From: a virus
Length of the DNA: 64,000 bases
Virus record (IMG/VR): IMGVR_UViG_3300031539_000008
Span: 38,605 to 102,604 of that record
Direction: 5' to 3' (one strand)
The stretch's first letter is position 1; each line of letters begins with the position of its first letter. Position numbers and translations under genes: made by a program. Below the pieces are notes generated by a model. That model made no database searches and was not told where the DNA came from. It was given only the letters and a program-made list of their open reading frames with translations. Below, piece by piece: positions 5,346 to 33,949 of this stretch.

Positions 5346-5624
5346 TCAGCGTCTTCCGCGACCCTTGAGCGTGAGCCCGATGGCACCACGGCCCACGATG
5401 GCGTTGTTTTCTTGTGGCCAGCGGCCGGCGATCGGACCGATAATTCCTGCGCGCTCTGGGTTGCCCATGCCACGCGGAAGGACCTGCGCGCTCATGTGGC
5501 GCCCATCGCCCTGGAGCGGTCCGTAGCTCTTGTTGGGCTTGTAGGTGGAAACCAGGACGCTGCGTCCGTCCAGTCCGCCGATGCCAGCTCCCAGATCTGT
5601 GTCGCTCATTGATGGGTTGTGCAT
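5346..5624 (-). CDS. Small protein with MxNPSMSDTDLGAGIGGL leader
   Basis: Start re-placed at ATG 5624 by identity with the start of 6277..6720. Confidence 0.75.
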   Translation of the reverse strand: MHNPSMSDTDLGAGIGGLDGRSVLVSTYKPNKSYGPLQGDGRHMSAQVLPRGMGNPERAGIIGPIAGRWPQENNAIVGRGAIGLTLKGRGRR

Positions 5625-5656
5625 GCCCTTGGTCTCTTTCTCTCGTGCAGACTGTC

Positions 5657-5908
5657 CTAGAATTTCGAGCAAAAGGGCGGCAGGTAGTCTCCGAGGTAGT
5701 GATTGCAACATTCGCAATTGAACTGGTTGCCCTGGTCGTCGACAGCGCACCGCTTGTAGTCTCCCTCTCCCGAACACGAGCGTGTGCTACCTGGGCTAGA
5801 GGTGATACGACCGCGACCACGCCGACGCGCGGGCTTCTGGTAGGCGGCACGGGTGGAGGCCGCAGATCCGCGTTTGCTTCTACTGGATGCCATGGATGGG
5901 TTGTTCAT
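5657..5908 (-). CDS. Basic leader plus 6-Cys peptide
   Basis: MNNPSMASSRSKRGSAASTRAAYQKPARRRGR followed by a Cys-rich tail ending LGDYLPPFCSKF. Confidence 0.75.
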   Translation of the reverse strand: MNNPSMASSRSKRGSAASTRAAYQKPARRRGRGRITSSPGSTRSCSGEGDYKRCAVDDQGNQFNCECCNHYLGDYLPPFCSKF

Positions 5909-6270
5909 CTTCGTTTCCTTTCAGTCCCTGACTCGGTTGCTAAGTGAAAGCCGCGATGGAGGGCCATCACCTGGACGACCCTCTCCACCCACCTCACATA
6001 TTCACGCACCAAGGAGGCAGGTATCCGCCCAACACGCGAGTGCAACACTGACCCTTGCCAGAATGCCAGTAGTAATCACTCCCGTGACTCTTCTTGCAGT
6101 CTGCGTCCTTGCCCAGATTCGATCCTCCAGGGACGCCGAGTGTCGCTCGTCCGCGCCTGCGCGCGGGCTTCTGGTAGGCGGCACGGGTGGAGGCCGCAGA
6201 TCCTCGTTTGCTTCTACTGGATGCCATGGATGGGTTGTTCATCTTCGTTTCCTTTCAGTTCCTGACTCGG
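5826..6270. repeat. 111-bp direct repeat (5826-5936 and 6160-6270)
   Basis: 2 mismatches; covers RBS region and leader codons of two adjacent peptide genes. Confidence 0.92.
5994..6242 (-). CDS. Basic leader plus 4-Cys peptide
   Basis: Same 32-aa leader as 5657..5908, different core ending LGGYLPPWCVNM. Confidence 0.75.
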   Translation of the reverse strand: MNNPSMASSRSKRGSAASTRAAYQKPARRRGRATLGVPGGSNLGKDADCKKSHGSDYYWHSGKGQCCTRVLGGYLPPWCVNM

Positions 6271-6276
6271 GTTTGG

Positions 6277-6720
6277 TTATCGGAACACGTTTTTCACTTT
6301 ACACATGCCCTTGCAGACCTTGAGCTTGTACTCAGCTCCGCCACCATGCTTGGAGATGCAGTCCGCCTCGCAGCGGTTGGATCCGCCGCCACGGGGAGAC
6401 ATGCCACCGCGAGCGCTGACGGCCTTCAGTGTCCCTCGCGTGCGACGACGCCCCATGCCCAACGTCTTGGGTGCCTGGGTCGAGACCGCGCCACGGTAGT
6501 AGTCGTCACCACGCTCTCCGTCGACCTGGAAGTGGTTGCCGAACACGCGGTTGGCGTAGGAATTGCCATCCGTATTCACCGTGGCTCGAAAGTGACCTGG
6601 CTGAACCTGCTGGAGGTCCACCGAGAACTCGCTTCCGAACACGCGTTGGGCGTAGGAAGGTGCGCCCAGTCCGCCGATGCCAGCTCCCAGATCTGTGTCG
6701 CTCATTGATGGGTTGCGCAT
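6277..6720 (-). CDS. Leader-bearing protein with C-terminal twin CX3C motif
   Basis: MRNPSMSDTDLGAGIGGLGA...CEADC...CKGMC. Confidence 0.75.
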   Translation of the reverse strand: MRNPSMSDTDLGAGIGGLGAPSYAQRVFGSEFSVDLQQVQPGHFRATVNTDGNSYANRVFGNHFQVDGERGDDYYRGAVSTQAPKTLGMGRRRTRGTLKAVSARGGMSPRGGGSNRCEADCISKHGGGAEYKLKVCKGMCKVKNVFR

Positions 6721-6738
6721 GTCCTTGCTCTCCTTCTC

Positions 6739-7032
6739 TCAGCGATTCGTATGGTACGCGAGCCTACAGACTCCCTGGCAGCAGACCCACAGGCCCTTGT
6801 GGTCAACCCTTGCCTTACAGCCGCGCGGGATCCTGGGTCGACTCGCTCGCTTGGTCGCTCCCACGCCACGGCGACATCCAGAGGACACCGGGGTTCCGAC
6901 GGGTAGCATGGTCTGCGCGGCGCATCCACCGATGCCGGGAAACCACAGCCCCATCATCGCTGGCTGTATGGCCGCTAGGTTCTCCAGCGCCATGGTCTCG
7001 CTGTCAGCTTCGGCTCTGCACGGGTTGAACAT
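6739..7032 (-). CDS. Cys-rich basic protein with RGVGA motif
   Basis: MFNP start; RRGVGATKR; CKARVDHKGLWVCCQGVC. Confidence 0.65.
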   Translation of the reverse strand: MFNPCRAEADSETMALENLAAIQPAMMGLWFPGIGGCAAQTMLPVGTPVSSGCRRGVGATKRASRPRIPRGCKARVDHKGLWVCCQGVCRLAYHTNR

Positions 7033-7463
7033 CAGACGATCCGCACGATGGTTGCGCCGCGCACGGTCGGCACCTCGGTCGGGACAACTTGATTCTGGTC
7101 GGAGATGTCGACCTGGACCGCGCCAGGCGCAGCGGCCTCCAGGATGAAGCGATGGATGTACGGCGCGCCCGGCATGGCCTCCTCGGGCTCCTCGACCTCC
7201 TCGGTGACGATCAGCGTGGGGTCACCCTCGACGGCTTCCGTGAAGATCGTCCACTCGTAGGCCGTGCCGCTGGCATGAGGCAGCTCGATGGTCAGCACGT
7301 CTCCGAGGTTCAGCTCAACCTCGGTGGGCAGCTCGGACAGCTCGGTGATGAGTACCTGCTCCGGAGGCTGCCCGCCGTTTCCGTCCTTGACTTTGTCGCC
7401 CTTGCTCTTGGCGAGCAGAATGACGGCTCCGACGATGAGAACTGGTACAAGTGGAAATGGCAT
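7032..7463 (-). CDS. Membrane-anchored chagasin-like (I42) cysteine-protease inhibitor domain
   Basis: N-terminal TM; LNLGDVLTIELPHASGTAYEW and MPGAPYIHRFILEAAAPG resemble chagasin NPTTGYxW and GAGG-xF-A-PG loops (degenerate). Confidence 0.6.
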   Translation of the reverse strand: MPFPLVPVLIVGAVILLAKSKGDKVKDGNGGQPPEQVLITELSELPTEVELNLGDVLTIELPHASGTAYEWTIFTEAVEGDPTLIVTEEVEEPEEAMPGAPYIHRFILEAAAPGAVQVDISDQNQVVPTEVPTVRGATIVRIV

Positions 7464-7479
7464 CTGTGTCCTCGGTCTT

Positions 7480-7854
7480 TCACCCGCAGATCGGGTACCA
7501 GCTCGTGCCGCTTTGATGAGCGACGAGCGCGTAGTTTGCTTTGACTTCCAGGACCGTCCCTGGGTAGCTCAGTCCGCCGCAGAAGATCGTTCCGTTGGTG
7601 ATGTCGACGCAGCAGCTCGCGTAGGAGCCGTAGTGTCGGGGGTAGTAGCCGGCCCACCACGCCCACCAGTTGCCCCACCATCCGCTGCCCCCGCTGCCCC
7701 CGCTGCCACCTCGGCCGCGCCAAGGGTGGCCTGGGCGCCAACCTCCGCCGCCGCCGCCACCACCTCGACCTCGGCGGGCACGTCCTGCACGTCCTCCGCC
7801 GCGCTGTCCTACGCCGCGACGACTTCGATGAATGGTGAGTTTGACTTCTCCCAC
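7480..7854 (-). CDS. Gly/Arg/Trp-rich protein with Cys-containing C-terminal domain
   Basis: KLTIHRSRRGVGQ; GWWGNWWAWW; 4 Cys. Confidence 0.65.
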   Translation of the reverse strand: MGEVKLTIHRSRRGVGQRGGGRAGRARRGRGGGGGGGGWRPGHPWRGRGGSGGSGGSGWWGNWWAWWAGYYPRHYGSYASCCVDITNGTIFCGGLSYPGTVLEVKANYALVAHQSGTSWYPICG

Positions 7855-7859
7855 GTGAG

Positions 7860-8183
7860 CTACCTGTCGTAGATCGAGCGAAATTGGTCTCTGACCAACT
7901 GATTGACGAGCTGCTTCTTGGTCACGCGACCGTACCGCTTGAGCACAGGCTTTTTTTTTGCCTTCTTGCGGCGGCGCTTGGGGTTGTGTGACTCGATGGT
8001 GGCCAGCTTCTTGTAGTAGGCCTTGTCTTCGGTCAGGTGATCCATGGCGATCTCGACGGCCACCATGAAGTCGCTGGTGTGCTCCGTCTCAACCAGCGCT
8101 CCGCGAGCGAGTTCCACGGCGTTGAAGTCAGAGGGGGACTTCCCCACTGACAGACCGCCGGGTATGCGCTCGCGCCACGTCAC
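7860..8183 (-). CDS. DUF5661-like protein with basic tail
   Basis: ELARGALVETEHT...AVEIAMDHLTEDKAYYKKL then HNPKRRRKK; GTG start overlapping the upstream stop. Confidence 0.7.
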   Translation of the reverse strand: MTWRERIPGGLSVGKSPSDFNAVELARGALVETEHTSDFMVAVEIAMDHLTEDKAYYKKLATIESHNPKRRRKKAKKKPVLKRYGRVTKKQLVNQLVRDQFRSIYDR

Positions 8184-8863
8184 GGAATCCGTAGCTTTCG
8201 CTTCCTCTTCGGAGTCTTCTTCTTCGCCACCTTCTTCTTGGCCTTCTTCTTGGCCTTCTTCTTTTTTCCTCCGCGTGGAACCTGTGTCCACTCGCCGGAT
8301 GCACGCATCTCCACGTCCGATGGAGCGTACCGCTCGGTCCACTCGCCAGAGGAGATCATTTCGCGTGACTTCTTGTGCGCCGCCTTGTAGCCGGCGTCTG
8401 GATTGCTGGCCGTGCCAGAGAGCAGGACCGACTCGGTATGCGGGTCGATCAGGCCCCACTGGATCTGACTCTTGGCGCCGGGGTTGGGCACCCAGACATA
8501 TGCCAGCTCGGACGGGTTCTTGGTGAACCGCGTGAGACTGCCAGGCGTGCCCATCACGATCCCCTTCCAGTAACCGAGCAACGCATGCGAGCGCTTGTCT
8601 CCCATGCCCTTGGGCCCACAGCTCATGCGTGGGCTGGCCGCGTATCCGCGAGCCATCGCGGCGTTGGCCCCGGCCGAGCACGAGGTCAGATCGTACTTGC
8701 TGGCCCCCATTTTTCCCTTCGCGCTCCGGCTGCGAATCGGGACGTAGTAGGCACCGCGCGCCTCGCTCCAGCGGATGCGCGCCTGTCCTCCGGCGACGCC
8801 GCGGCCCTCCTTGCGAACTGCGGCAAGCGCCTTGGCGAAACTGACTTTCTGCTTTTTGGCCAT
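8180..8863 (-). CDS. Basic protein with xNP motifs and Lys-rich tail
   Basis: TKNP, VPNP, ASNP; KKKKAKKKAKKKVAKKK. Confidence 0.8.
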   Translation of the reverse strand: MAKKQKVSFAKALAAVRKEGRGVAGGQARIRWSEARGAYYVPIRSRSAKGKMGASKYDLTSCSAGANAAMARGYAASPRMSCGPKGMGDKRSHALLGYWKGIVMGTPGSLTRFTKNPSELAYVWVPNPGAKSQIQWGLIDPHTESVLLSGTASNPDAGYKAAHKKSREMISSGEWTERYAPSDVEMRASGEWTQVPRGGKKKKAKKKAKKKVAKKKTPKRKRKLRIP

Positions 8864-8871
8864 GACTGATC

Positions 8872-10236
8872 CTAGATCTTGCTGAACTTGCGCAGAATCG
8901 TCGCCTTCTCACGGGCACTCATCTGCTTGTTCGCCTTGGGTCCACTCGGCTTGACCGAGCGGGGGGTTTTGGCCGCGACAGCGCGAGCCTTGCGCGACTT
9001 CTTGCTCTTGAACTGCGCAAACAGCCCCTCGTGTCCCCGAATAGGCTCCAGGGGGTTGAGCTGTAGGTAACCACGCGAGGAGAGCTGCATGCGGCGACCC
9101 GAGGCCGTTGCGCCACGTCCCGCGCCGGAGCCTGGACCGTCGCCGGAGAACCGGCTCATGTTGCGACCGGCCACAGAGAGGCGATGAATCGCCTGCTCCA
9201 CCGTCATCTGCGGAGGCACGCCGGCGAACCCTGGGCGCGGCACGTTGCTCGGCCACGGCGCGACGCGCGTGGGCGCTCGCTTGGCCACCTTGCGCTTCGT
9301 GGCCTTGCGCTTGGCGACCTTCCGCTTTCCGGTCGTCTTCCGCTTTCCGGTCGTCTTCCGCTTGGCCACCTTCTTCTTGGCGGTCTTGCGCTTGGCGACC
9401 TTCTTCTTCGTGGCCTTCTTCTTCGTGGCCTTCTTCTTGGCTGGCTTGCGCTTGGCTGTGCTCAGCTTCTTGGAGCACAACTCCAGCCGCATGGAGCAGC
9501 CTTTCAGGGAGTCCTTGAGAGCCTCCTCCTGCTTCTTGGTCAGGTCTCCCCGATGCTTGGCCTTTTTCAGGCGCGTCTCCAGGGACTTGATGTGTGCCTT
9601 GAGCGAGGCGATTTCCTTGCTGTCCTTGCGCTTGGCGGCGGCGATGCGCTTGGTCTCCTGGCGTGCCGCATCGAATCCCTCCATCAGGTCGGACACCACG
9701 TCGGCTGAAACCATTTCTTCGGTCAACTTGGCCAGCGCAGCCTTGCCCTTGGTGATTTTGGCAATCTTGGCCTTGGACGGAATCGAACCCTGGGCCATTC
9801 CCCATTGTTTCTTCGTCAGACCGTGCTTGCGTACCTTGCTTGGCGTACCAGACGGGCTGGCGGGGCCGGCGGCAATCCCGACAGCTTTCTTCTTCTTCGA
9901 CCGCTTCTTCGTGGCCTTCTTCTTGGCCGGCTTGCTCTTGGTCGCTTTCTTCTTCGCAGTTTTCGCCACCTTTTTCTTGGCCACCTTTTTCTTGGCCTTT
10001 TTCTTGGCTGGCTTTTTCTTCGCCACCTTCTTCTTCTTGGTCGCCTTCTTCTTGGTCGCCTTCTTCTTGGTCGCCTTCTTCTTGGTCGCCTTCTTCTTGG
10101 TCGCCTTCTTCTTGGTCGCCTTCTTCTTCTTGGCGGCGTTGCGCTTTGGCGACTTGCGCTTCGCGGCACGCTTCTTCGCCTTCTTGGCGCGCTTCTTCTT
10201 TCGAGGATTGACGACGTTGACGGTGTAGGTGGCCAT
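8872..10236 (-). CDS. Histone H1/Hc2-like Lys-Ala-rich DNA-condensing protein
   Basis: (KKATK)n pentapeptide repeats (15-bp tandem near 10031-10125), central coiled coil, ends ATILRKFSKI. Confidence 0.85.
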   Translation of the reverse strand: MATYTVNVVNPRKKKRAKKAKKRAAKRKSPKRNAAKKKKATKKKATKKKATKKKATKKKATKKKATKKKKVAKKKPAKKKAKKKVAKKKVAKTAKKKATKSKPAKKKATKKRSKKKKAVGIAAGPASPSGTPSKVRKHGLTKKQWGMAQGSIPSKAKIAKITKGKAALAKLTEEMVSADVVSDLMEGFDAARQETKRIAAAKRKDSKEIASLKAHIKSLETRLKKAKHRGDLTKKQEEALKDSLKGCSMRLELCSKKLSTAKRKPAKKKATKKKATKKKVAKRKTAKKKVAKRKTTGKRKTTGKRKVAKRKATKRKVAKRAPTRVAPWPSNVPRPGFAGVPPQMTVEQAIHRLSVAGRNMSRFSGDGPGSGAGRGATASGRRMQLSSRGYLQLNPLEPIRGHEGLFAQFKSKKSRKARAVAAKTPRSVKPSGPKANKQMSAREKATILRKFSKI

Positions 10237-10287
10237 GGTGGTGTTCTCCTGAGTTTGGACGCCCTTCGCGGGCAGGCGAGGTGGGCG

Positions 10288-10407
10288 TCAGCGCCCTCGC
10301 GGAAGTTTCGTGATGCTGAGAGTACCTGCTAACAGGGAAAACGAAAAGAGAACCAACCCGACGTGCACGGCAGCGGTGGCAAGAGTGGGTTTCTTCGGTC
10401 CGTTCAT
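10288..10407 (-). CDS. Micro membrane protein (39 aa)
   Basis: Hand-translated MNGPKKPTLATAAVHVGLVLFSFSLLAGTLSITKLPRGR; ATGA overlap. Confidence 0.55.
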   Translation of the reverse strand: MNGPKKPTLATAAVHVGLVLFSFSLLAGTLSITKLPRGR

Positions 10408-10577
10408 CGCCCCTTGCCGAAGTAGAACGCGGTGCCGACGAGTGCAAGCATCGCGGCCCACAACGGGACCTTCCTGCCGTTCTCATCGTCGCCGGCACCC
10501 ACGCCACGGCGTCCGCGAGTACGGACGATACGACGAGGGAGACGCGGACGACGTGTCTTGTACTTGGGTCGTCTCAT
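10404..10577 (-). CDS. Basic leader, RGVGA, C-terminal TM (57 aa)
   Basis: MRRPKYKTRR...RGRRGVGAGDDENGRKVPLWAAMLALVGTAFYFGKGR. Confidence 0.7.
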   Translation of the reverse strand: MRRPKYKTRRPRLPRRIVRTRGRRGVGAGDDENGRKVPLWAAMLALVGTAFYFGKGR

Positions 10578-10741
10578 TTTACCGCCTTGATGATGCCGTA
10601 GGATGCGAGTCCTCCGAGGATCAGTGCGGCCCACACGGGTACGCACAGATCGGTGGTGTCACCGTTGGCCCCCATGCCGCGACGACCGCGAGACCTCGCC
10701 TTCTTCTTGCGCTTGTTGGTACGTGGACTGAACTTCGCCAT
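10574..10741 (-). CDS. Basic leader, RGMGA, C-terminal TM (55 aa); paralog of previous
   Basis: MAKFSPRTNKRKKKARSRGRRGMGANGDTTDLCVPVWAALILGGLASYGIIKAVK. Confidence 0.7.
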   Translation of the reverse strand: MAKFSPRTNKRKKKARSRGRRGMGANGDTTDLCVPVWAALILGGLASYGIIKAVK

Positions 10742-10752
10742 CTTCTTCTCCT

Positions 10753-11454: not shown

Positions 11455-11462
11455 GGATGGGG

Positions 11463-11798
11463 CTACCGAGCGAAGACCTCGGCGCGTGTGTGAAGTCGGC
11501 CTTCATCGAACTCGATGTGGTCGCGTTCAACCTGATCTACCAACTCGGCCGGGCAATACCTGCGGAACGGAAGCATCTCCCGTGCCGCGTGCTCTGCGAC
11601 GAGGTCTGGCGGAAAGCCAAGGTTCCGCAGCATCCGATGCTCACGGCGCAACTTGTGTTGTTGAGCGTTGGGCAGATACGGAAACAGCGAATCCTCCTCA
11701 AATGCGAAGTGGCATTCCAAACAGCACGCCACATCCATGCGGCAACTATTCATCTTGTCTTTGCAGGCTCCGCAACATGGTGGCTTGACTGGCATCAC
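11463..11798 (-). CDS. Hemerythrin/HHE-like small protein
   Basis: HFAFEEDSLFPYL, LRREH, HAARE pattern. Confidence 0.55.
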   Translation of the reverse strand: MMPVKPPCCGACKDKMNSCRMDVACCLECHFAFEEDSLFPYLPNAQQHKLRREHRMLRNLGFPPDLVAEHAAREMLPFRRYCPAELVDQVERDHIEFDEGRLHTRAEVFAR

Positions 11799-12523
11799 GT
11801 ACCTCTCATGGCCTTCTCCAGGATACCCCTGGTTTTCTTGCTACTCGTGCGATTCTTCCTGGATTTCGTCCTCTTCTTCGTCGGGTTCGGGATGAGACCC
11901 TCTGCCGCCAGTGAGGTAAAGTTACGTGGAGAGACCACCACGTGATCCAACACCGGGATTCCAGTCATCCTGCCGACCTTGACCATGCGTTGTGTCAGAT
12001 CGATGTCAGCCTCGCTTGGCGAGGAGTCGCCAGTGGGATGGTTGTGTGCGATGACCACGCTGTGAGCCTGCCGACGGATCGCCTCCCGAAACAACTCTCT
12101 GGGGTGCACCTCCACCGCCGACAGGCTGCCAATGGCGATTCCGAGCACGTCGATCACTTGCTGGCGTGCGTCGAGCAACACGACGACGAAATACTCCTGC
12201 GGCTTCTTGCCGATGACCCTACGCACGAGTTCTGCTACCTCGGATGGCTGCCTGACAGTCCCCGCGCGGTCCTGACAGGCCGCGTCACACAAGCCAGCAA
12301 CCGCAAATACAGCAATCACCTTCTTGGCCTGGGCAGTGGGAACCCCAAGATGGGTGAGCGCACTCATGCTCGCGTCGGAGAGTCCACGCCCGTCGGGGAA
12401 GTTCTCGGCCAGGATGGCTGCGCTTTTCTTGGTCAGCCCCAACTCACGCAGGCGGTCCACGAGCTTGCCTCGCTCCCGAATCTCCAGGAGTAGATCGTTG
12501 TGTATCGGTCGACCTCTCGGCAT
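11795..12523 (-). CDS. radC: RadC/JAB-domain protein with basic tail and C-terminal tag
   Basis: QEYFVVVLLD, VHPRELFREAI, AHNHPTGDSSPSEAD, LDHVVV; tail PNPTKKR...GILEKAMRGT. Confidence 0.9.
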   Translation of the reverse strand: MPRGRPIHNDLLLEIRERGKLVDRLRELGLTKKSAAILAENFPDGRGLSDASMSALTHLGVPTAQAKKVIAVFAVAGLCDAACQDRAGTVRQPSEVAELVRRVIGKKPQEYFVVVLLDARQQVIDVLGIAIGSLSAVEVHPRELFREAIRRQAHSVVIAHNHPTGDSSPSEADIDLTQRMVKVGRMTGIPVLDHVVVSPRNFTSLAAEGLIPNPTKKRTKSRKNRTSSKKTRGILEKAMRGT

Positions 12524-12936
12524 CAGGTTCCTCGCATCGCTTTACGCAGGATCGCGCGGGCGTCTGGATTATTCTTCGCATTTTTCTTGGCGGTCTTTTT
12601 GGCCTTACTGGGCTCTTGGGCGATACGCCCTTCCGCCAGCTCGATCATGCTATCCTTCTCACCGGCCCGCTCATCCAGACGATCCTGGTCGCGCGCGGCC
12701 GTGTACGCCTGGATGTAGAAGCTGTACTCGACCTTGTAGATGTGGCCGTTGACCTTCGTGTAGAGGCCGGGGATGACTCGGTCGTTCAGGCTGTCCCACA
12801 GCTCATGCCACTGGTAGTCGTCTGGGCCGTAGTCTGGCAGCGCCTGCTGTTGCTTGCGGGGGTCTGGGATTCTGGCGCTGCGTCGGTCGAACGACGACAT
12901 CTCCCGATACGGCGATGTGACAACCGGAGCCATCAC
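12523..12936 (-). CDS. Hypothetical protein with C-terminal tag
   Basis: Ends KKNAKNNPDARAILRKAMRGT. Confidence 0.8.
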   Translation of the reverse strand: MMAPVVTSPYREMSSFDRRSARIPDPRKQQQALPDYGPDDYQWHELWDSLNDRVIPGLYTKVNGHIYKVEYSFYIQAYTAARDQDRLDERAGEKDSMIELAEGRIAQEPSKAKKTAKKNAKNNPDARAILRKAMRGT

Positions 12937-14287: not shown

Positions 14288-14496
14288 CTTCGTTTCTCAG
14301 CGTCGTCGGGATCCCTTTTTCGGCCGCGACCGCGGCCCACCGGAATACCGTCAGCCAATCCCCGGGCCGCATGACGCGTCCCCCACTCCCCTGAAGTCGT
14401 GGAAGGACTGTGGTGCGATTTGTGGTGCGATTTGTAGCGTGGAGACGGTCGCCGCGTTGGCGCGGTCCACATCGGCTTTGCTTGGTTGAGTAGCCA

Positions 14497-15060
14497 TCAG
14501 GGGCGGCTTGTATCCTCATATTGTACGGGGAGCTGCGGGTCGCCGGAGCCAGGACCTGGCCCGGTGTGCTTCGTGCACACCCAGATGCCTTTGACGTACG
14601 CGAACTGCTCGCAGTCACCTGCGTCTATAGGCGTTGATCTTCCGGCTGATAGGGAACGCGAACGAGAGCGCGAACGAGAGCGCCGACGCCCAACCCCGAT
14701 CCTTGGGCCCGGTGCTGTTGGTCCATGGGGGAACAGGCATCCGGTAATCATGGACCCTTGGCACTCAGCCAAATCGTGAGCACTCAGCTTGCTCGCCATC
14801 CACTGTTTCTTACACCAGGCTAGACCACTGGAGATGCACTTGCCGCGGGGGCGGCTAGGCGTGGATCCTCCGCGTGAGCCCGCCCTCCCCTTGCCCCGAG
14901 CGCCGACTCCACGGTGCAGAGTCATCTTGACCGGTGCCCCCATGCCTCGCGGCACGATCGGGATGCGGACGTGTCCATCTTGGATGTGAGAACGAGCCGC
15001 GTCGGTGTCCCATGCTCCGAGGCCGACTTGACGCTGATACAGAGTGGGGTTGTTGGCCAT
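14497..15060 (-). CDS. Basic Cys-containing protein with several G[LMV]GA motifs
   Basis: MANNP; GLGA, GMGA, GVGA; RS repeat; KGIWVC. Confidence 0.7.
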   Translation of the reverse strand: MANNPTLYQRQVGLGAWDTDAARSHIQDGHVRIPIVPRGMGAPVKMTLHRGVGARGKGRAGSRGGSTPSRPRGKCISSGLAWCKKQWMASKLSAHDLAECQGSMITGCLFPHGPTAPGPRIGVGRRRSRSRSRSRSLSAGRSTPIDAGDCEQFAYVKGIWVCTKHTGPGPGSGDPQLPVQYEDTSRP

Positions 15061-15061
15061 C

Positions 15062-15493
15062 TCAGTACCTCCCCGTCGCCCGGTACTGACGCTTGGCGGT
15101 CAGACTGATGGGCCGGCGGTTCTTCCCACCTAGCCGGCGGGTGCCGGCTCCCTTGAAGGTGAGAGACATGCCAGATGCAGGCTCGTACCACCCGCCCCGG
15201 CTCGCGCCCAGGCCCTCGGGTTCGTCCGTGTACTGGTTGTTGTTGGCGTCCACGCCGCCGTCGTCTGGATAGCCAACGGTGTCGTTGTAGTCATCCATGC
15301 CGCCAGATGGCTGGCCATCCGGAGCGCAGTCCACGTCTGGCTGATGCGGGTAGGGCGTCTTCCCGCAGTGGCAGTAGTGGTGGTGGTGGTGGTGAACATC
15401 CTGGTGTTCATGCTGCGGCGCACAGCCGGTGTGGCAGCCAGCCACCCCTTGCTGTTTCCCTCGCTGCTTTCGATAGCTTCGTCGTTGAGCCAT
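15062..15493 (-). CDS. His/Cys-rich protein
   Basis: HEHQDVHHHHHHYCHC; EGLGAS. Confidence 0.65.
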   Translation of the reverse strand: MAQRRSYRKQRGKQQGVAGCHTGCAPQHEHQDVHHHHHHYCHCGKTPYPHQPDVDCAPDGQPSGGMDDYNDTVGYPDDGGVDANNNQYTDEPEGLGASRGGWYEPASGMSLTFKGAGTRRLGGKNRRPISLTAKRQYRATGRY

Positions 15494-15498
15494 TTTTC

Positions 15499-16272
15499 TT
15501 ACCTCCGTTGTTTTCCGCGCAAAGTCAGGCCGCGCTTACCGATTCCGCCCTGGTCGCATCCCGCATCGATCCAGTAGGGCATGCTCCTGGTGGGGCATCC
15601 AGCAAATGGCTCGGCGTAGAACTGCGCGCTCTGCCCGATCCAGTACGGCTGTTGCCCGATAGGATAGGGCACCCGTCGCTGTCGCCTTTTTCGTCCTCGA
15701 CGAAATCCATAATACAGGCCGACCGGATTGGTGGTGGGTGCGCAGCCGATGTCCCCGGGATTTGGCCCGATGTACGGGTTGCATGCCGCGCCATACCCTG
15801 GTCCTGGAGGCACCGGTGGCCGAAGAGGCCGGCGACGCGCGGGAATGGGAGTGGCAGCGGGCGGTGCAGCGGAGGTCTGTCCGACGCCAGGGCTCGTGCA
15901 GTCGCCTGTGCAGTCGCCTCCGCACTCACACTCGTGTCCAGATGCGCAGGACTCACAGCAGTACCCTTCCCACCATGGCTGGTGATGGTCCACCGCAGGG
16001 GGGCAGTCTGAGTGACCGCCGCATGGCCGCTCAGGCAGACAGATGGGAAGCGCGCCGCGAATCGAGTAGGGCGTGTAGATTCCACTCTCCATCGCCAAAT
16101 AGCTGCGCTGGAGACCCGGATGCTGGACAGGCTGGCAACCGGGCCGATACGCCGGATAGGCGGGCATTTCGGTATCTCCGCTCCAGGTCCCGTGAGGCGC
16201 GCCCATTCCGCGGCGGTAGGTCAGGGGGATTCTGCGCATCGTCTTGTTCTTCCACTTGTCTCCACAGGGCAT
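15499..16272 (-). CDS. Cys/Pro-rich protein
   Basis: RRGMGAP; CCESCASGHECECGGDC; ends LTLRGKQRR. Confidence 0.7.
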   Translation of the reverse strand: MPCGDKWKNKTMRRIPLTYRRGMGAPHGTWSGDTEMPAYPAYRPGCQPVQHPGLQRSYLAMESGIYTPYSIRGALPICLPERPCGGHSDCPPAVDHHQPWWEGYCCESCASGHECECGGDCTGDCTSPGVGQTSAAPPAATPIPARRRPLRPPVPPGPGYGAACNPYIGPNPGDIGCAPTTNPVGLYYGFRRGRKRRQRRVPYPIGQQPYWIGQSAQFYAEPFAGCPTRSMPYWIDAGCDQGGIGKRGLTLRGKQRR

Positions 16273-16276: not shown

Positions 16277-16615
16277 CTACCTCTTCGGCTTCGCGAGCGG
16301 GCGATCGTTGTAACAAACCCACCGATAGCCGTTGAAGTGTGGCGTGAACCCGGGGAGGCAGGTCACCCCCCTGGTGGTAGCGGACGCGGCGATGCGGCGA
16401 CTGGGAGGCGCTGGCAGTCTGGCGCCCACGCCGTACTGCGTTGGGTGCATGAACACCTGCGGGCGGTAGGGGACTGCGTAGTCGATCACGGTATCGGTCC
16501 ACGGGTCGTAGCTCGCACCGACGCCGCGGGTGCTCCCTCCGCCGAGCAGACGCTTGGCAGACTCGACTTCGCGCAGCATGCGACCGCGCCCTTTGTCACC
16601 GCTTGGGTTGTTCAT
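16277..16615 (-). CDS. Small protein with MNNPS start and two GVGA motifs
   Basis: RGVGAS, YGVGAR, C...GYRWVC. Confidence 0.7.
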   Translation of the reverse strand: MNNPSGDKGRGRMLREVESAKRLLGGGSTRGVGASYDPWTDTVIDYAVPYRPQVFMHPTQYGVGARLPAPPSRRIAASATTRGVTCLPGFTPHFNGYRWVCYNDRPLAKPKR

Positions 16616-30083: not shown

Positions 30084-31128
30084 GACCCCTCGCCATCATC
30101 CCGGGAGGCGGGGTGATACCGTTGCTTCCGTCGGACCAGGAGACGCCAAGGGTAGTGACGACGCCAGCTCCCAGGCTTGCTTCGTTCAGCTTGGGGAGCC
30201 ACACGGTGGGCCGATCATCTCCCCACGGCGTGGGCTCGGCGCCAGGGAGTTCGTGGTCGTCGTCCCAGGTGGTCGGAAGGTCATTCGCCGGCGAGCAAAC
30301 GATCAGGGAGACGTACTGCGCCACATCCTGCTCAGAGGGCTGGCCAATAGCCGTTAGCGCCGCACGGGCGATTCCATGGATGGTCTCGTCGCCCTCAACC
30401 GTGTGGAAGACGCCGTGTGCGACCTTGTTGTCGGTCGGATGATAGGCGTAGGGATCCGGCCGCCGTCGCATCACCCGCTTGCGCCGGAGTGTCAGCGACC
30501 GCCGAGGTGCCTCTGCCTGCGGAGGCATGGGCGTTGCTCGACCAATACGCGGCGATGGCTCCTCACGCTCGGGCTCACTCTCCTCTTCCTCGTCAGCATG
30601 CCCGTCCGCATCGCCGTCGCCGTCGCCGTCGCCGTCCTCCTCGATTTCCTCGATTTCCCGCTCGCGAGCATGGGACGTGGCATCATCTGCGATGCGTTCT
30701 TCCTGGGCGGCCAGTAGGGTGTTCACGCGCAAGCGGATGCGCTTGTAGATCATGGTGGCGCCAACGTCCCGGTCGCCATCGCGCAACTCTGGCGGCCATG
30801 GGAACTCCATGCCGGTCACCGGATGGATGGGATAGATAGTTTTTGCCACGGCCAGCGTCAGCCGATCAGGATCGGGCTCGCCCTTGTCCAGCAGTTCCTG
30901 GGCGACCTCGCTCACACGATGCGGCTGCCAGGGGAAGGTGGTCCAGCTCTGCTTGATCCGTCCGTTTCCACCCTTGACGCGACTGTGAGTCCTACGCGCA
31001 GGTCGTCTCAGCGTTCGCCGTGAAGACGCATCCGCAGTCTTGCCGGCGACACCCCTACGCTTGCCTCTGCTGTGTCCCTTTTTTCCGGCGAGAAGAAGCG
31101 CGCTTCCGATGACGAGAAAATGGATCAC
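30073..31128 (-). CDS. N-anchored protein with LysM-like C-terminal segment
   Basis: GTG start MIHFLVIGSALLLAGKK; FHTVEGDETIHGIAR...VWLP. Confidence 0.65.
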   Translation of the reverse strand: MIHFLVIGSALLLAGKKGHSRGKRRGVAGKTADASSRRTLRRPARRTHSRVKGGNGRIKQSWTTFPWQPHRVSEVAQELLDKGEPDPDRLTLAVAKTIYPIHPVTGMEFPWPPELRDGDRDVGATMIYKRIRLRVNTLLAAQEERIADDATSHAREREIEEIEEDGDGDGDGDADGHADEEEESEPEREEPSPRIGRATPMPPQAEAPRRSLTLRRKRVMRRRPDPYAYHPTDNKVAHGVFHTVEGDETIHGIARAALTAIGQPSEQDVAQYVSLIVCSPANDLPTTWDDDHELPGAEPTPWGDDRPTVWLPKLNEASLGAGVVTTLGVSWSDGSNGITPPPGMMARGHGE

Positions 31129-31841
31129 GTAAAGCCTCCTGGTTGCGCCCACGGTGGTGGGGTGCCCGACAACTTCGCGAGCAGTGAACTTGGCGGATTG
31201 CGTCCCGATGGCGGGCAGACGATCTGGGCCGGGACTGCACCCATGCCGGGAGCACGTGCTGACGGCGCTTGCTGGATCGCCGGCAGCCACAGCAGTCCGA
31301 AGTTGGTGCGTTGAGATGGCGGGGTGAAAGTGGTGTCCTTCACGGGCCATCGCGCAGCGTGCAGGGACTTGAGCGCGTCTGGATTCTGCTTCTCGAAAGC
31401 CAGAGACGCACTGATGCCGCCGACTACGGTGTTACCGCTGTCGGGTACGCCGTAGTAGTAGCGATTCCAGTCGCTGCTGTTGATGCACCTTGCGTACGCG
31501 GTCACTTGCTGCGCCGTCATAGTGGGGACGCCGAAGATGGCCATGGCGGCCACCGCATCGACCAGCGCGCGATCAACCTCCAGGTCAGCAGCGGACACCG
31601 GATAGAACGTGCCGAAGACCGGCTGGCCAGGATTCGACAGGGGCACTTGAAGCTGAGTCCCTCCGTTTCCGTTTCCGTTTCCGTTTCCGTTTCCGTTTCC
31701 GTTTCCGTTTCCGTTTCCGCCGCCAGACGATCCACCGCCACCGCCACCGCCACCGCTACCTCCCGTCGTGGATGATCCTCCGCGTCGTCCGAGTGCGGCA
31801 GCGGCAAGGAGTCCGAGTCCGAGAATGACGATCGGTTTCAT
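31125..31841 (-). CDS. N-anchored protein, (GN)n linker, domain related to previous gene
   Basis: MKPIVILGLGLLAAAALGRR; GTFYPV...LLWLP. Confidence 0.7.
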   Translation of the reverse strand: MKPIVILGLGLLAAAALGRRGGSSTTGGSGGGGGGGGSSGGGNGNGNGNGNGNGNGNGNGGTQLQVPLSNPGQPVFGTFYPVSAADLEVDRALVDAVAAMAIFGVPTMTAQQVTAYARCINSSDWNRYYYGVPDSGNTVVGGISASLAFEKQNPDALKSLHAARWPVKDTTFTPPSQRTNFGLLWLPAIQQAPSARAPGMGAVPAQIVCPPSGRNPPSSLLAKLSGTPPPWAQPGGFT

Positions 31842-32281
31842 CTGGCACCTCTTGGGCAACGGCATACGCCGCGTTTCACGTCTTCGCTCGGGTCGTATCG
31901 CATGTTGTCGCTGACGACGTAGGCGTGGTACGCCTGGTCAATCGGGCGCCCGTAGTGATCGTACTGCTGCTCCAGCACGACGTAGGCTGGACGGTTGAGG
32001 TGGTAGCGAATCCAGGCGGCAAGGTACGCCGACATATCCGCGCACGTCCCAACTTTCTCCTCCAGCAGCTTGTCCGCCGCCAATATGACCTGGCAGAAGT
32101 CCTCGCTGCGACACATCATCGGGTCAACGTACTCAACCCCTGCGTGGAGCAGGCAGCAGGGCGTGTTGGGGTCGAGGCCGAAGAAGATCTGATTGTGCTG
32201 GACTAATCCCTCTAACATCGCCTCCAGCATCTGTACCGTGGACTGGCCGTTGAGCGACCGGAAGCGAAAGCGGAGTTGCAT
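31838..32281 (-). CDS. Transglutaminase-like cysteine protease (putative maturation protease)
   Basis: GTCADMSAYLAAW...HAYVV...YDPS gives a Cys-His-Asp triad in transglutaminase order. Confidence 0.7.
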   Translation of the reverse strand: MQLRFRFRSLNGQSTVQMLEAMLEGLVQHNQIFFGLDPNTPCCLLHAGVEYVDPMMCRSEDFCQVILAADKLLEEKVGTCADMSAYLAAWIRYHLNRPAYVVLEQQYDHYGRPIDQAYHAYVVSDNMRYDPSEDVKRGVCRCPRGAR

Positions 32282-32297
32282 ATCATCGCCGACCACA

Positions 32298-33188
32298 TCA
32301 AAACTCCAAGTGCCAGACGTACGTGTAGAATCGACCAACGCCGGTCGTATTGACGCTGGCAACGCCGGCGGCATTTCCAGGGCGGTCTGACAGACAGCTC
32401 ACGTTTGCACAATCCAAGGAGAAGGGGACGGGGGAGATCAGGCCTGTCGGTGGGGCGCTCCCGGTCGGGTCGCCGAACTCCACCCAGTTGGCTGCGTTCG
32501 GGATACCCGGCGCTGGTCCAGGTGTCGAGATGCGAACGCCCACGGCTCCTGGTGGGCACGGCACGAATACGGGCGTCGCATCGGGGAGGGAGAACGTCTG
32601 CGTGAGCAGGGCCTCTCCTCGGACCGGGGCGAAGCTCTCCTGCACGGATGCCCTGATGATGGTATCGAGAAATAGCCCGGGTCCGTCCATGGACTGCGGA
32701 AGAGTCCCTTGGGGTGTCGAGCCTCGGACGCTGATGCACTCCGGCGGAGTGATGATGTTCAGCTCAAGCGAACAGGAGTGCGCAGAGATGCGCATGCCCG
32801 CGCCAATGTCGAAAACCGCGCGTCGGCCGATCCCTGCTTGATGCCAGGATACGGCCGCCCAGAGCTTGGAGCATGGCAGTCCCGAGCCCTGGATGACCGC
32901 AGGCGGGAGAGGTGAGGCAGAGTTTCCAACGAGCACCTGCCGCATGACCTCCAGGGCATTGATCTCTGCGGTCCACCAACGAGGCTCGGCGCAGCTTCCA
33001 CTGGGCCCACTGACGTACGCATCCATGCTCACCCGCGGGTTGATGGGCGACTCCATGGGCGTTTGGTTCGTATCGACCGGATTCGTGCCCCACCGGCACA
33101 GAAACTGCCGAGTCATCGACTGAGTCGGCGGAGTGCACTGGCCAGCGTAGGCACCGGGTGCAGATGGCTGGCGTGAGTTGAATGGCAT
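32298..33188 (-). CDS. Putative beta-rich capsid/vertex protein
   Basis: 296 aa, alternating hydrophobic strands, directly downstream of the capsid candidate. Confidence 0.5.
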   Translation of the reverse strand: MPFNSRQPSAPGAYAGQCTPPTQSMTRQFLCRWGTNPVDTNQTPMESPINPRVSMDAYVSGPSGSCAEPRWWTAEINALEVMRQVLVGNSASPLPPAVIQGSGLPCSKLWAAVSWHQAGIGRRAVFDIGAGMRISAHSCSLELNIITPPECISVRGSTPQGTLPQSMDGPGLFLDTIIRASVQESFAPVRGEALLTQTFSLPDATPVFVPCPPGAVGVRISTPGPAPGIPNAANWVEFGDPTGSAPPTGLISPVPFSLDCANVSCLSDRPGNAAGVASVNTTGVGRFYTYVWHLEF

Positions 33189-33200
33189 CGGTTCGACCGG

Positions 33201-33242
33201 AAAAATGAGAGCCGACGCCCCCGGCTACCCGGGGACGGCGGC
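33201..33242 (-). terminator. Terminator/attenuator after capsid candidate
   Basis: GC hairpin ccccgg-ctac-ccgggg followed on minus strand by TCTCATTTTT. Confidence 0.55.
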
Positions 33243-33250
33243 GACCTGGA

Positions 33251-33949
33251 CTACGCCAGGACGTTGCACCACAGCACGACGAAGAAGTGGATGTTGCTGG
33301 TGACGACGATGTTGTCGAAGAAGATCTGAAGCTCCTGACCGTTCTGCGAACGGAAGGGGGCCCAGTCGACACACACCGGCTCACGAGTCGCTGCGAACGC
33401 AGCGCTGTTGAGCCCGTTGCCGATCCCGCGAGCACGGAGCTGCGAGTTTCCGCCGATGGTCACGTTCGTGACCACGGTGGGAAGCTCGATCACCGGGTTG
33501 GCGATCAGGTTGTTCGCATCCGGGGCGGGAGCCGCCTCGAAAGCCGTGAACCAGATGGCCACCGCCTGCAACGCCACGGCGTCGAAGTTGGTGATCAACA
33601 GGCTTGAGCCACCCGCCGTGCCAGGCACGACCGGAGCCGTTCCGAGCGTGGTCGCGCCGATCAGGTCGCAATCACACAGGAACTCCTCCGGACACGGACC
33701 GCCGACGGGAGCCCCGAGCGGCAGATCGTTCTGACCGGGGAACCGACAGGACGGATCCTGTGAGTTGTTCGCGCCCATGCCCTGAAGGCGACCGCTGCGA
33801 GGAATGGGGAACGCCCGTCCCCGCCCGGGTTGGCTGCTGCCGGCACCGCGACGAGCGCCGATCATCAGATCGGAGAAGGTCTCGGCTTCCTTGTTGAGCT
33901 TCTTGCTCTGCTTGAGAGCGTTCATGTAGCCATCCAAATGTGCGGACAT
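33251..33949 (-). CDS. Candidate single jelly-roll major capsid protein with N-terminal propeptide
   Basis: Basic N-terminus to LQGMGA, then about 140-aa beta-rich domain (VVTNVTIGGNSQL...LQIFFDN...FFVVLW); second gene of operon, followed by terminator. Confidence 0.55.
   Translation of the reverse strand: MSAHLDGYMNALKQSKKLNKEAETFSDLMIGARRGAGSSQPGRGRAFPIPRSGRLQGMGANNSQDPSCRFPGQNDLPLGAPVGGPCPEEFLCDCDLIGATTLGTAPVVPGTAGGSSLLITNFDAVALQAVAIWFTAFEAAPAPDANNLIANPVIELPTVVTNVTIGGNSQLRARGIGNGLNSAAFAATREPVCVDWAPFRSQNGQELQIFFDNIVVTSNIHFFVVLWCNVLA

Follow-up and report, generated by a model that had tools for sequence, protein, structure and literature searches.

A recurring glycine-based motif in a capsid-like protein and small proteins of an unclassified 100-kb virus, and its possible role as a processing site

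An unclassified 100-kb virus carries a recurring short protein motif, [R/K]-G-[M/V/L/I]-G with A, Q, or N after it, in the arm of a capsid-like protein of jelly-roll type and near the N termini of about ten small proteins. Several of these small proteins, whose genes form a separate module, are basic or rich in Cys. The recurrence is real, and the motif has the form of a short linear signal in flexible segments. Tentatively, we read it as a processing site cut during maturation by the virus's own enzyme, encoded at 31838 (probability of about 0.4). The window analyzed here is a 64,000-nucleotide stretch of the viral record, and genes are named by their first coordinate in it.

Recurrence of the motif in small proteins

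The copies of G[MVL]GA and its variants listed in an earlier note on this DNA all exist, in frame and on the minus strand. The small genes that carry them, together with two additional copies outside that list (14351 and 8180), are as follows.

5346..5624, minus strand: 92-aa protein, start MHNPS, LPR-GMGN-P (5460-5471)
6277..6720, minus strand: 147-aa protein, GIG-GLGA-P (6661-6672); weak member, no Arg before the motif
6739..7032, minus strand: 97-aa Cys-containing protein, CRR-GVGA-T (6856-6867)
7480..7854, minus strand: 124-aa Arg/Gly-rich protein, SRR-GVGQ-R (7804-7815)
8180..8863, minus strand: 227-aa basic protein, PK-GMGD (8597-8608); extra, looser copy
10404..10577, minus strand: 57-aa protein with basic leader (+13), TRGRR-GVGA-GDD (10494-10505), and hydrophobic helix; paralogue of 10574 (E = 9e-9)
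10574..10741, minus strand: 55-aa protein with basic leader (+11), SRGRR-GMGA-NGD (10667-10678), acidic patch, and hydrophobic helix; AGGAG ribosome-binding site
14351..14497, minus strand: 48-aa ORF, FR-GVGD (14378-14389); extra copy
14497..15060, minus strand: 187-aa orphan with GLGA (15013-15024), PR-GMGA (14935-14946), and HR-GVGA (14899-14910); GGGAGG ribosome-binding site
15062..15493, minus strand: 143-aa ORF, PE-GLGA-S (15203-15214); weak member, no Arg before the motif
15499..16272, minus strand: 257-aa Cys-rich protein, YRR-GMGA (16198-16209) near the N terminus
16277..16615, minus strand: 112-aa protein, TR-GVGA (16514-16525) and Y-GVGA-R (16421-16432); GC3 of 0.81

We compared motif counts in six frames of the whole 102.6-kb record with null expectations. 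The enrichment that the earlier note had suggested measuring was not significant for the loose pattern G[MVL]GA alone (37 matches; Markov-3 null mean of 21.6, null maximum of 38) but was clear for RG[MV]GA (8 observed versus 1.18 expected; maximum of 5 in 200 null runs), with 7 of the 8 copies on one strand inside 10 kb. RG[MV]G[ANQ] likewise occurred 11 times versus 1.75 expected (null maximum of 7), and 9 of these matches fall between 5474 and 16528 on the minus strand. When 12 small proteins were scanned blindly for k-mers, the words that recurred most were RGVG (6 proteins), RGVGA (4 proteins), and the reduced word +GhG (9/12), each count exceeding the largest for any k-mer in 500 shuffles. 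Synonymous codons vary from copy to copy, indicating that the signal is a protein motif rather than a DNA repeat. While both Gly residues are fixed by the way the copies were collected, position 2 is hydrophobic throughout, Arg dominates just before the motif, and the residue after it varies (A, Q, N, D, G, or L).

Some of the recurrence reflects paralogy (5346/6277, 10404/10574, and possibly 15499/16277); nevertheless, the motif is found in at least five or six groups without detectable homology to each other. Both motifs of 16277 are retained in P0094-96, its only homologues, while the C-terminal Cys region diverges; for 14497 no homologue was found. In 10574 and 10404, as the earlier note described, the motif stands between the basic leader and a hydrophobic stretch of about 18 residues. 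A basic leader proved to be a feature of only about half of the carriers: the segment before the motif is clearly basic in 10404, 10574, 15499, 16277, 7480, and the capsid candidate, and neutral or acidic in 5346, 6277, 6739, 14351, 14497, and 15062. Expression of the small carriers is only putative, since the majority are orphans whose codon use is atypical (GC3 of 0.61 to 0.72). Their ORFs follow directly on one another, with ATG starts and sites resembling Shine-Dalgarno sequences, and their coding scores are low.

Two further matches are unrelated to the motif: APGMGAV in 31125 is not conserved in homologues, and AAGMGAL in 34140 sits in a fully conserved glycine-rich hydrophobic segment, by eye a membrane helix. 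In this genome, unrelated proteins also share a second terminal tag, ..ILRKAMRGT; the genome further encodes extremely Lys-rich proteins (e.g., 8872-10236) and a pair, 5657 and 5994, whose leader is conserved and whose Cys-rich core varies.

The capsid candidate and the enzyme encoded nearby

Six features bear on how the motif might be used.

33251..33949, minus strand: capsid candidate, 232 aa, true start MSAHLDGYM
33770..33781, minus strand: GMGA at residues 57-60 of the capsid arm (RLQ-GMGA-NN), corresponding to "site 2" in the family
32298..33188, minus strand: conserved 296-aa ORF lying between the capsid-candidate and enzyme genes
31838..32296, minus strand: transglutaminase/papain-like Cys-His-Asp enzyme (invariant triad, fold), candidate protease
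7032..7463, minus strand: membrane-anchored chagasin-family (I42) inhibitor of papain-like cysteine peptidases (Pfam Inhibitor_I42, E = 4.2e-8)
11795..12523, minus strand: RadC-like JAB protein, alternative candidate peptidase (Pfam RadC, E = 4.9e-38; Prok-JAB, E = 1.2e-6)

The capsid candidate, which we modeled with AF2, begins with conserved helices (residues 3-30), continues in an Arg/Gly/Pro arm predicted to be disordered (26-92), and ends in a beta-sandwich domain (94-232). The QGMGAN copy ends a basic N-terminal extension, as had been claimed (net charge of +6 before GMGA, -1 over the next 20 residues). The arm has pLDDT below 50, suggesting that the motif region should be accessible. 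A search recovered 27 family proteins at E ≤ 0.01, including the window's own, of which 26 were aligned (alignment A1). Across these 26 homologues the N-terminal helices are strongly conserved, and in the otherwise unalignable predicted-disordered arm a basic residue followed by G-[MVLI]-G is kept at two sites, site 2 reading R-G[MV]G-Q in homologues. R.{0,1}G[MVLI]G occurs in 17/26 arms versus 2.1 expected, and G[MVLI]G[AQN] in 19/26; shuffled arms gave about 2 to 2.5 for such motifs, with a maximum of 8. The proposed link between the capsid arm and the small proteins is supported, and the motif is conserved in the capsid family, being absent or degenerate in some homologues (P0006 and P0025). 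Glutamine follows the motif in 15/35 arm copies, whereas Ala holds that place in this virus's capsid copy and in 11/22 small-protein copies.

The beta-sandwich domain has jelly-roll-type matches to HCIV-1 (Z = 7.4), P23-77 VP16 (Z = 6.6), and VP17 (Z = 5.8). Because these are middling, the identification of this product as a capsid protein is only plausible. Copies of the 32298 gene, 43 to 50% identical, occupy the same place in relatives L002, L004, L006, L007, and L008; the product has no Pfam or PHROG match and could be a second capsid protein.

The 31838 product, of about 147 aa (probable start GTG 32296 or ATG 32281), had been called transglutaminase-like, and its assignment as a transglutaminase/papain-like Cys-His-Asp enzyme is supported. 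C80, H119, and D130 are invariant in 41 sequences of 25 to 56% identity, a family with extra conserved Cys pairs. Pfam Transglut_core is matched, weakly, by 13 of the 41, and this virus's own protein has no Pfam match. The AF2 model is confident (pLDDT of 93.8) and matches TgpA, the putative Cys proteases 3kd4 and 3isr, PeiW, and LapG, none of these matches scoring better than middling (Foldseek E = 1.9e-3 and Z = 7.6 at best). Capsid candidate, 32298, and enzyme stand in this order in L002/L003, L004/L005, and L008 as well, and in each of the four lineages seen the enzyme gene keeps its place two genes behind the capsid candidate. The inhibitor match scored 33.8 bits (cut-off, 27.2), and its gene lies between the motif-bearing genes 6739 and 7480.

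Possible processing and alternative explanations

As a processing site, the motif would present Arg at P4, Gly at P3, a hydrophobic residue at P2, and Gly at P1, and the cut would fall just ahead of a P1' residue that varies. Such a bond, following the second Gly, would suit the hydrophobic position 2, the Arg dominating before the motif, and the variable residue behind it; papain-like peptidases draw their specificity mainly from a hydrophobic residue at P2. The 31838 product would make the cut, releasing the conserved N-terminal helices from the capsid protein in the manner of a scaffolding propeptide, and would detach the leaders of small proteins as particles mature. The chagasin-type inhibitor encoded in the same genome could hold the enzyme in check until assembly. 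We infer all three elements of this scheme: that the motif is cut, the position of the cut, and the enzyme responsible. The excess and clustering of the motif, its conservation, the enzyme fold and triad, the gene order, and the I42 inhibitor argue for it. Against it stand the middling fold scores, the failure of this virus's own enzyme to match Pfam, the missing or degenerate motifs of some homologues, the Arg-less carriers (6277 and 15062), the orphan status and atypical codons of most small carriers, the paralogy, and a fold and triad that also serve cross-linking transglutaminases, isopeptidases, PNGase, and acyltransferases/N-acetyltransferases. The interpretation in the earlier note, taken as a whole, is partly supported.

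The motif might instead be an uncut docking signal that binds a common partner (the inner shell face, a membrane vesicle, or a chaperone) and brings the capsid arm and small proteins into the particle, as encapsulin cargo-loading peptides do. We consider this rather unlikely. Conservation as a short island in disordered segments would suit any linear motif, the ILRKAMRGT tag suggests that peptide addressing may be in use in this genome, and the strongly conserved capsid helices would also fit a permanent structural role. However, docking leaves the adjacent enzyme and the I42 inhibitor unexplained, and a variable residue directly behind fixed ones, like two or three copies in a single short protein (14497 and 16277), is more typical of cleavage sites. 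It is less likely still that another peptidase, RadC-like or from the host, cuts the motif while 31838 acts elsewhere, e.g., on the cell wall at entry or exit. The strong RadC match, the position of that gene inside the small-gene module (between 10404/10574 and 14497), and the virus-encoded pseudomurein isopeptidases PeiW and PeiP among the nearest structural matches of 31838 (Z = 6.3 to 6.8) are consistent with this idea, and JAB/MPN enzymes characteristically cut after Gly-Gly. Yet we know of no established peptidase activity for RadC-type JAB proteins; 31838, not RadC, adjoins the capsid gene in every relative seen, and I42 inhibitors target papain-like peptidases, not metallopeptidases.

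Alternatively, 31838 could be a true transglutaminase and the motif a cross-linking site, with the Gln that most capsid homologues carry directly after G[MV]G as acyl donor to Lys-rich internal proteins, stabilizing the particle. The fold and triad equal those of transglutaminases, and the Gln frequency and the Lys-rich proteins would fit; however, the supposed donor is not conserved, given the Ala in the capsid copy and half of the small-protein copies, and the inhibitor points to peptidase activity, making cross-linking improbable. We give similarly little credence to the absence of any shared function, in which Arg/Gly-rich composition in GC-rich DNA and recent duplication of a leader cassette among doubtful small ORFs would account for the copies. 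The loose-motif count within the null range, the paralogous carriers, the low coding scores, and the orphan 14497 are in line with such an origin. In contrast, the strict motif recurs more often than composition-preserving nulls allow, in DNA as well as in protein, spans groups without detectable homology, and persists both in the capsid family, which is unrelated, and in the 16277 homologues, and the end-to-end tiling of the ORFs with their start signals also argues against it.

Comparison with known systems

The adenovirus protease AVP (adenain) cuts (M/I/L)XGG-X and (M/I/L)XGX-G in capsid proteins and in the small, strongly basic precursors of the core (pVII and pX/mu) during maturation (PMC4246237). 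The likeness lies in a Gly-based motif common to a jelly-roll capsid-like protein and small basic proteins. However, AVP belongs to clan CE (Ulp1-like), with the order His...Glu/Asp...Cys rather than Cys...His...Asp in a transglutaminase-like fold, and places its hydrophobic residue at P4 rather than P2. Cleavage here is a proposal, and the host appears to be bacterial, given the Shine-Dalgarno sites, sigma-70 factor, and DnaB of the genome. LapG, a transglutaminase-like cysteine protease, makes a site-specific cut at the small-residue Ala-Ala in LapA (PMC10990149). This BTLCP endopeptidase has the same fold and Cys-His-Asp triad, and its structure (4fgo) matches 31838 weakly (Z = 5.1); unlike 31838, which has no signal peptide by eye and carries the extra Cys pairs, LapG is periplasmic, calcium dependent, and regulates an adhesin. 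HK97 prohead maturation also involves a helical N-terminal capsid part on a linker and a protease gene beside the capsid gene, removal being hypothetical here; it differs in capsid fold and in its herpesvirus-like serine protease, compared with a beta-sandwich candidate and a Cys-His-Asp enzyme.

Double-glycine leaders cut by C39 domains (bacteriocins and RiPPs) resemble the system in pairing a conserved leader with a variable Cys-rich core (16277 versus P0094; 5657 versus 5994) and a Gly-containing junction site with a papain-like Cys peptidase. The motif here, however, also occurs in a capsid-like protein, and no ABC transporter or C39 domain was found in this virus. The leader consensus is LSxxELxxIxGG, whose hydrophobic spacing differs from that of our motif. 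Among sphaerolipovirus-like capsids, built of two vertical single jelly-rolls (P23-77 VP16/VP17, HCIV-1, and HHIV-2), the likeness rests on the C-terminal domain, on a second conserved gene directly after the capsid candidate, and on the long run of genes behind it that encode an N-terminal hydrophobic helix plus a Lys stretch. However, that group is not known to have a maturation protease, and unrelated beta-sandwiches give Z scores as high as theirs (PHM, Z = 7.6). We recognized no packaging ATPase of the FtsK/HerA type in this virus, and its genome exceeds 100 kb, whereas known members have genomes of about 16 to 31 kb.

A Gly-hydrophobic-Gly motif shared by the small proteins

A gene cited by one number is identified by its lower coordinate and lies on the minus strand. 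The genes needed for the argument are these:

33251 to 33949, minus strand: capsid candidate
32298, minus strand: open reading frame of 296 amino acids, between the capsid candidate and the enzyme
31838 to 32296, minus strand: transglutaminase-like enzyme
7032 to 7463, minus strand: candidate cysteine-peptidase inhibitor
5346, 6277, 6739, 7480, 10404, 10574, 14497, 15062, 15499 and 16277, minus strand: small proteins carrying the motif

The motif consists of Arg or Lys, Gly, a hydrophobic residue (Met, Val, Leu or Ile) and Gly, followed by Ala, Gln or Asn. All copies listed in an earlier note were present in frame, and we found further copies in 14351 (FRGVGD) and 8180 (PKGMGD). The loose form used in that note, G[MVL]GA, was unconvincing alone (37 six-frame matches in the record versus a Markov-3 mean of 21.6 and maximum of 38). 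The stricter pattern with a preceding Arg was in excess: RG[MV]GA occurred 8 times versus 1.18 expected (maximum of 5 in 200 runs), and RG[MV]G[ANQ] occurred 11 times versus 1.75 expected (maximum of 7). Nine of these 11 copies lie on the minus strand from 5474 to 16528, about 5% of six-frame space. When every 4- and 5-mer in 12 small proteins of the motif region was counted blindly, the lists were headed by RGVG (6 proteins), RGMG (4), GVGA (4) and RGVGA (4), and the top reduced patterns were +GhG (9 of 12 proteins) and +GhGA (6). Each leading k-mer exceeded the largest count of any k-mer in 500 composition-preserving shuffles. Because the copies differ in their glycine, valine and alanine codons and occur in all three frames, the signal belongs to protein rather than DNA; the codon differences rule out a DNA-level repeat or regulatory site. 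We conclude that this is a genuine motif of the proteins, clustered and conserved.

Inspection led us to reject three known kinds of signal: prepilin-type (the hydrophobic stretch does not directly follow the Gly), Tat (no RRxFLK) and lipoprotein (no lipobox). Matches in 31125 and 34140 were rejected as members of the motif set. The product of 30073 to 31128 (minus strand) and its homologues in relatives' loci L002 and L008 loosely keep G-V-[AG]-[GA] after an N-terminal hydrophobic helix and a basic stretch (RRGVAG in the window, GGGVAG in L002, EEGVGAQ in L008; absent in L004); judged from sequence, this could be a degenerate copy.

The small open reading frames follow one another closely along the strand, only 1 to 40 bases apart, and GGAGG-like sites precede most of them. 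They start at ATG, except for 7480, which has GTG and no clear ribosome-binding-type site. Their third-position G+C is low for the genome (0.61 to 0.72 versus 0.72 to 0.85 in long genes), and several were dropped by crude gene calling. Pfam and PHROGs searches with the small proteins gave no match, and 14497 had no homologue among 5.8 billion proteins. Only the pairs 5346/6277, 5657/5994 and 10404/10574 were clear paralogues, and 15499/16277 and 14497/6739 showed hints of paralogy, so that the motif is found in at least 5 or 6 groups without detectable common descent. The earlier proposal that the motif ends a basic leader applied to 10404 (+13), 10574 (+11), 15499, 16277, 7480 and the capsid candidate (+6), and failed for 5346, 6277, 6739, 14351, 14497 and 15062.

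Homologues of 16277 were found in other assemblies (P0094 to P0096). They keep the first ∼80 residues and, with them, the two copies of the motif (RGVG[A/L] and [Y/F]GVGAR), while the Cys-containing C-terminal core of 16277 to 16615 (minus strand) is replaced between relatives. Likewise, a common leader joins different bodies in the pairs 5657/5994 and 5346/6277. These comparisons suggest peptides built from a leader and a variable core, which may represent a new class of virus-encoded processed peptides. An M-x-N-P start is common among the small proteins in 5346 to 7032 and 14497 to 16615 (minus strand), as in MNNPS, MRNPS, MHNPS, MFNPC and MANNP. Adjoining the motif carriers is a small gene (7860 to 8183, minus strand) whose product has a DUF5661 domain (Pfam E value of 7e-8).

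The capsid candidate and its arm

The capsid candidate has its true start at MSAHLDGYM, is 232 amino acids long and has 26 homologues (49 to 82% identity); neither it nor 32298 matched Pfam or PHROGs. The alignment has a conserved helical N terminus up to IGARR, a variable-length arm rich in Gly, Pro and Arg, and then a strongly conserved domain beginning CPPEFLCDCD. The AlphaFold model has predicted helices at residues 3 to 30, pLDDT below 50 over 26 to 92 and a beta-sandwich at 94 to 232 (block pLDDT of 66 to 95, AF2). Foldseek returned weak jelly-roll-type matches (E values of at least 0.014), and an exhaustive aligner returned HCIV-1 (Z of 7.4; root mean square deviation of 3.0; 116 aligned), VP16 (Z of 6.6) and VP17 (Z of 5.8), with PBCV-1 and faustovirus also among its rows. 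Capsid identity is unproven, since unrelated sandwiches score as high as jelly-roll capsids (PHM, Z of 7.6); helped by gene position and conservation, the model makes a capsid protein plausible.

Within the arms, R.{0,1}G[MVLI]G occurred in 17 of the 26 homologues versus ∼2.1 in shuffled arms, and G[MVLI]G[AQN] in 19 versus ∼2.5, with a maximum of 8 among the shuffles; because the homologues share ancestry, they do not count as independent observations. Two sites recur: ARR-G[MLI]G directly after the helices and, ∼25 residues later, R-G[MV]G-Q. In the window's protein, the first site is degenerate (ARRGAG) and the second reads GMGA. As read from the alignment, the motif is a conserved island in an otherwise unalignable arm. 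The link that the earlier note drew between the capsid candidate and the small proteins is thus upheld, with the motif kept in the arms of capsid homologues and recurrent in the small proteins. RARGIGN in the folded domain (residues 174 to 178) was rejected as a site; the homologues have no conserved G-x-G there.

The conserved gene 32298 adjoins the capsid candidate in relatives, and all relatives whose loci reach far enough (L002/L003, L004/L005 and L008) show the order capsid candidate, 32298, enzyme, making four lineages including the window. A metagenome scan yielded 8 syntenic loci, none reaching the small-gene module. Searches of IMG/VR (queried with the two single proteins, capsid candidate and enzyme, and with alignments A1, the 26 capsid homologues, and A4), of GTDB genomes (A1 and A4) and, by tblastn, of GenBank phages found no relatives; Atlas look-ups gave only unnamed viral clusters. 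One of the module's best conserved proteins is the small product of 34140 to 34520 (minus strand), which has a coiled coil and a hydrophobic segment rich in glycine; where it aligns, it is 75 to 85% identical in most relatives.

A transglutaminase-like enzyme and a chagasin-family inhibitor

The enzyme gene most likely begins at 32296 or 32281, right next to the stop codon of 32298. An HMMER pass over 1.8 billion representatives found 59 relatives of its product. Across 41 aligned sequences (25 to 56% identity), N30, Y51, C80, H119 and D130 are invariant, giving a catalytic order of Cys, His, Asp with local signatures GTCxD, YHA and DP. Weak Transglut_core (PF01841) matches occurred in 13 of the 41 (best E value of 3.5e-5); the window's protein had none at an E value of ≤1, and a PDB profile search gave nothing relevant. 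The AF2 model (pLDDT of 93.8) predicts a Cys-bearing helix packed on a beta-sheet with the His and Asp. Its top Foldseek rows were TgpA (probability of 0.99; E value of 1.9e-3), 3isr, PNGase and TG2; VIA gave 3kd4 (Z of 7.6; root mean square deviation of 3.6; 120 aligned), PeiW (Z of 6.8) and LapG (Z of 5.1). Of the proteins matched, 3isr and 3kd4 are putative cysteine proteases, and PeiW and PeiP are pseudomurein isopeptidases. PeiP, TglA, transglutaminases 2 and 3 and arylamine N-acetyltransferases also matched. Scores were middling, and the match list was almost wholly one superfamily. The invariant triad, the weak profile matches within the family, the confident model and the single-superfamily matches together make the assignment as a transglutaminase-like Cys-His-Asp enzyme well supported, and the fold named in the earlier note was right. 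"Protease" is one of several activities in this fold; peptidase, transferase and isopeptidase activities look alike by sequence and fold. The family also keeps several other Cys residues (a CC pair near residue 43, C57, C63, C140 and C142), which may bind a metal or form disulfides, as happens in some members of the PNGase type.

Between two motif-bearing genes lies 7032, whose product matches the chagasin family (MEROPS I42, Pfam PF09394; E value of 4.2e-8; 33.8 bits versus a gathering cutoff of 27.2) over residues 51 to 121, covering positions 2 to 72 of the 91-position profile. Of the inhibitory loops (NPTTG, GxGG, RPW/F), judged by eye, ASGTAYEW resembles the first; the other two look degenerate. 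Sequence features point to a virus-encoded, membrane-anchored I42 cysteine-peptidase inhibitor. Chagasin-family proteins inhibit papain-like cysteine peptidases; a virus with this gene probably has such a peptidase to manage, its own or the host's. A literature search found no example of a phage-encoded chagasin-family inhibitor.

Proposed cleavage at the motif and the viral setting

We tabulated all G-[MVLI]-G copies, 22 in small proteins and 35 in capsid arms, a collection rule that itself fixes both Gly and the hydrophobic middle residue. The preceding residue is Arg in 10 of the 22 and 14 of the 35 copies, respectively, and the following residue varies (A, Q, G, N, D, S, T or L). A constrained block followed by a variable residue is expected where the scissile bond lies behind the second Gly of R-G-hydrophobic-G. 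In the peptide ...SRGRRGMGANGD..., P2 would then be Met and P1 Gly; papain-like enzymes classically depend on a hydrophobic P2. In a wider reading that we consider rather unlikely, a transglutaminase-fold cysteine protease would cut this signal in the scaffold-like arm of a jelly-roll capsid protein and in small basic, membrane-bound or hypervariable Cys-rich peptides, which would be released inside the particle or into the host, with the chagasin-type inhibitor controlling the timing.

Cleavage of the motif by the 31838 enzyme is, in our estimate, the best single explanation, with a probability of about 0.4. A RadC-like JAB protein (11795 to 12523) encoded inside the small-gene module is a second candidate for the cutting enzyme. 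The motif could instead be a docking element that is never cut, which we consider less likely, or, with low probability, a site of transglutaminase cross-linking, a reaction that requires Gln where this virus mostly has Ala. For the preferred reading, cleavage by 31838, precedents exist. LapG is a transglutaminase-fold enzyme that acts as a site-specific endopeptidase on a small-residue motif (PMC10990149), and the single adenovirus protease processes precursors of the capsid and of the basic core alike at a Gly-based consensus (PMC4246237). Clan CE proteases (adenain, African swine fever virus pS273R and poxvirus I7) recognize a short consensus based on Gly in several precursors of virion proteins and cut there; here, a candidate consensus is present and conserved. 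However, those proteases have a Ulp1-like fold and the order His, Asp/Glu, (Gln), Cys, whereas 31838 has Cys80, His119 and Asp130. Membership of clan CE was rejected on this difference in order, and no clan CE structure was among the matches listed. 31838 would therefore be an analogue rather than a family member, in line with the earlier note's parallel using a different protease fold.

Proteolytic maturation at a short common consensus occurs in tailed phages, with serine proteases, and in eukaryotic jelly-roll viruses, with clan CE cysteine proteases; we know of no case among prokaryotic jelly-roll, membrane-containing viruses. If 31838 cuts the motif, a third protease fold would have been recruited independently for proteolysis during viral maturation, a new form of the process, and the consensus would predict mature virion proteins across a whole group of uncultured viruses (at least 26 homologues of the capsid candidate; at least 59 clusters of the enzyme at 50% identity). 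Motif, enzyme and inhibitor form a compact system testable in Escherichia coli.

The source record is linear (102.6 kb, rated 71% complete; the window spans bases 38605 to 102604). The window has 62% G+C, and from 1.3 to 54 kb the minus strand carries most genes. Recognizable genes encode a DnaB-type helicase, an AAA ATPase, a sigma-70 factor, Dam, a tyrosine integrase and RadC. Among ∼30 larger proteins scanned, none matched a terminase, a portal or an HK97-type capsid, and one weakly matched a PHROG "tail protein" (7e-5). From 31.8 kb down to 23 kb runs a series of genes whose products have an N-terminal hydrophobic helix and then a Lys-rich stretch. Vertical single jelly-roll viruses (P23-77 VP16/VP17 and HCIV-1 type) have major capsid proteins with an eight-stranded jelly-roll core, two adjacent capsid genes and an FtsK/HerA-type packaging ATPase. 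In the window, 32298 could be the second capsid gene; the scanned proteins yielded no such ATPase, and the only ATPase detected was the classical AAA protein at 51677. We consider rather unlikely the fuller picture of a >100-kb uncultured, apparently tailless, membrane-containing and probably bacterial virus with adenovirus-like maturation assembled from other components, comprising protease, R-G-hydrophobic-G signal and inhibitor timing.

Other features of the window are these:

51677 to 53116, minus strand: the AAA ATPase, matching PHROG 10440 (function unknown) very strongly (1e-120), the only strong PHROG link found
21218 to 22177, minus strand: collagen-like G-P-T-G-P repeats and a nonrepetitive C-terminal domain, possibly a fiber or spike
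8872 to 10236, minus strand: extremely Lys-rich protein of 454 amino acids with (ATKKK)n-type repeats, which may be a core protein that condenses DNA
3801 to 5342, 10753 to 11424, 11795 to 12523, 12523 to 12933, 12933 to 13727 and 16658 to 17614: proteins with a basic amphipathic C-terminal tail

Similar tails (..ILRKAMRGT, ..LRRLMRI, ..FMRRMMNI), often following an NP, occur on these otherwise unrelated proteins and on products of genes upstream of the window, and may be a second addressing signal.
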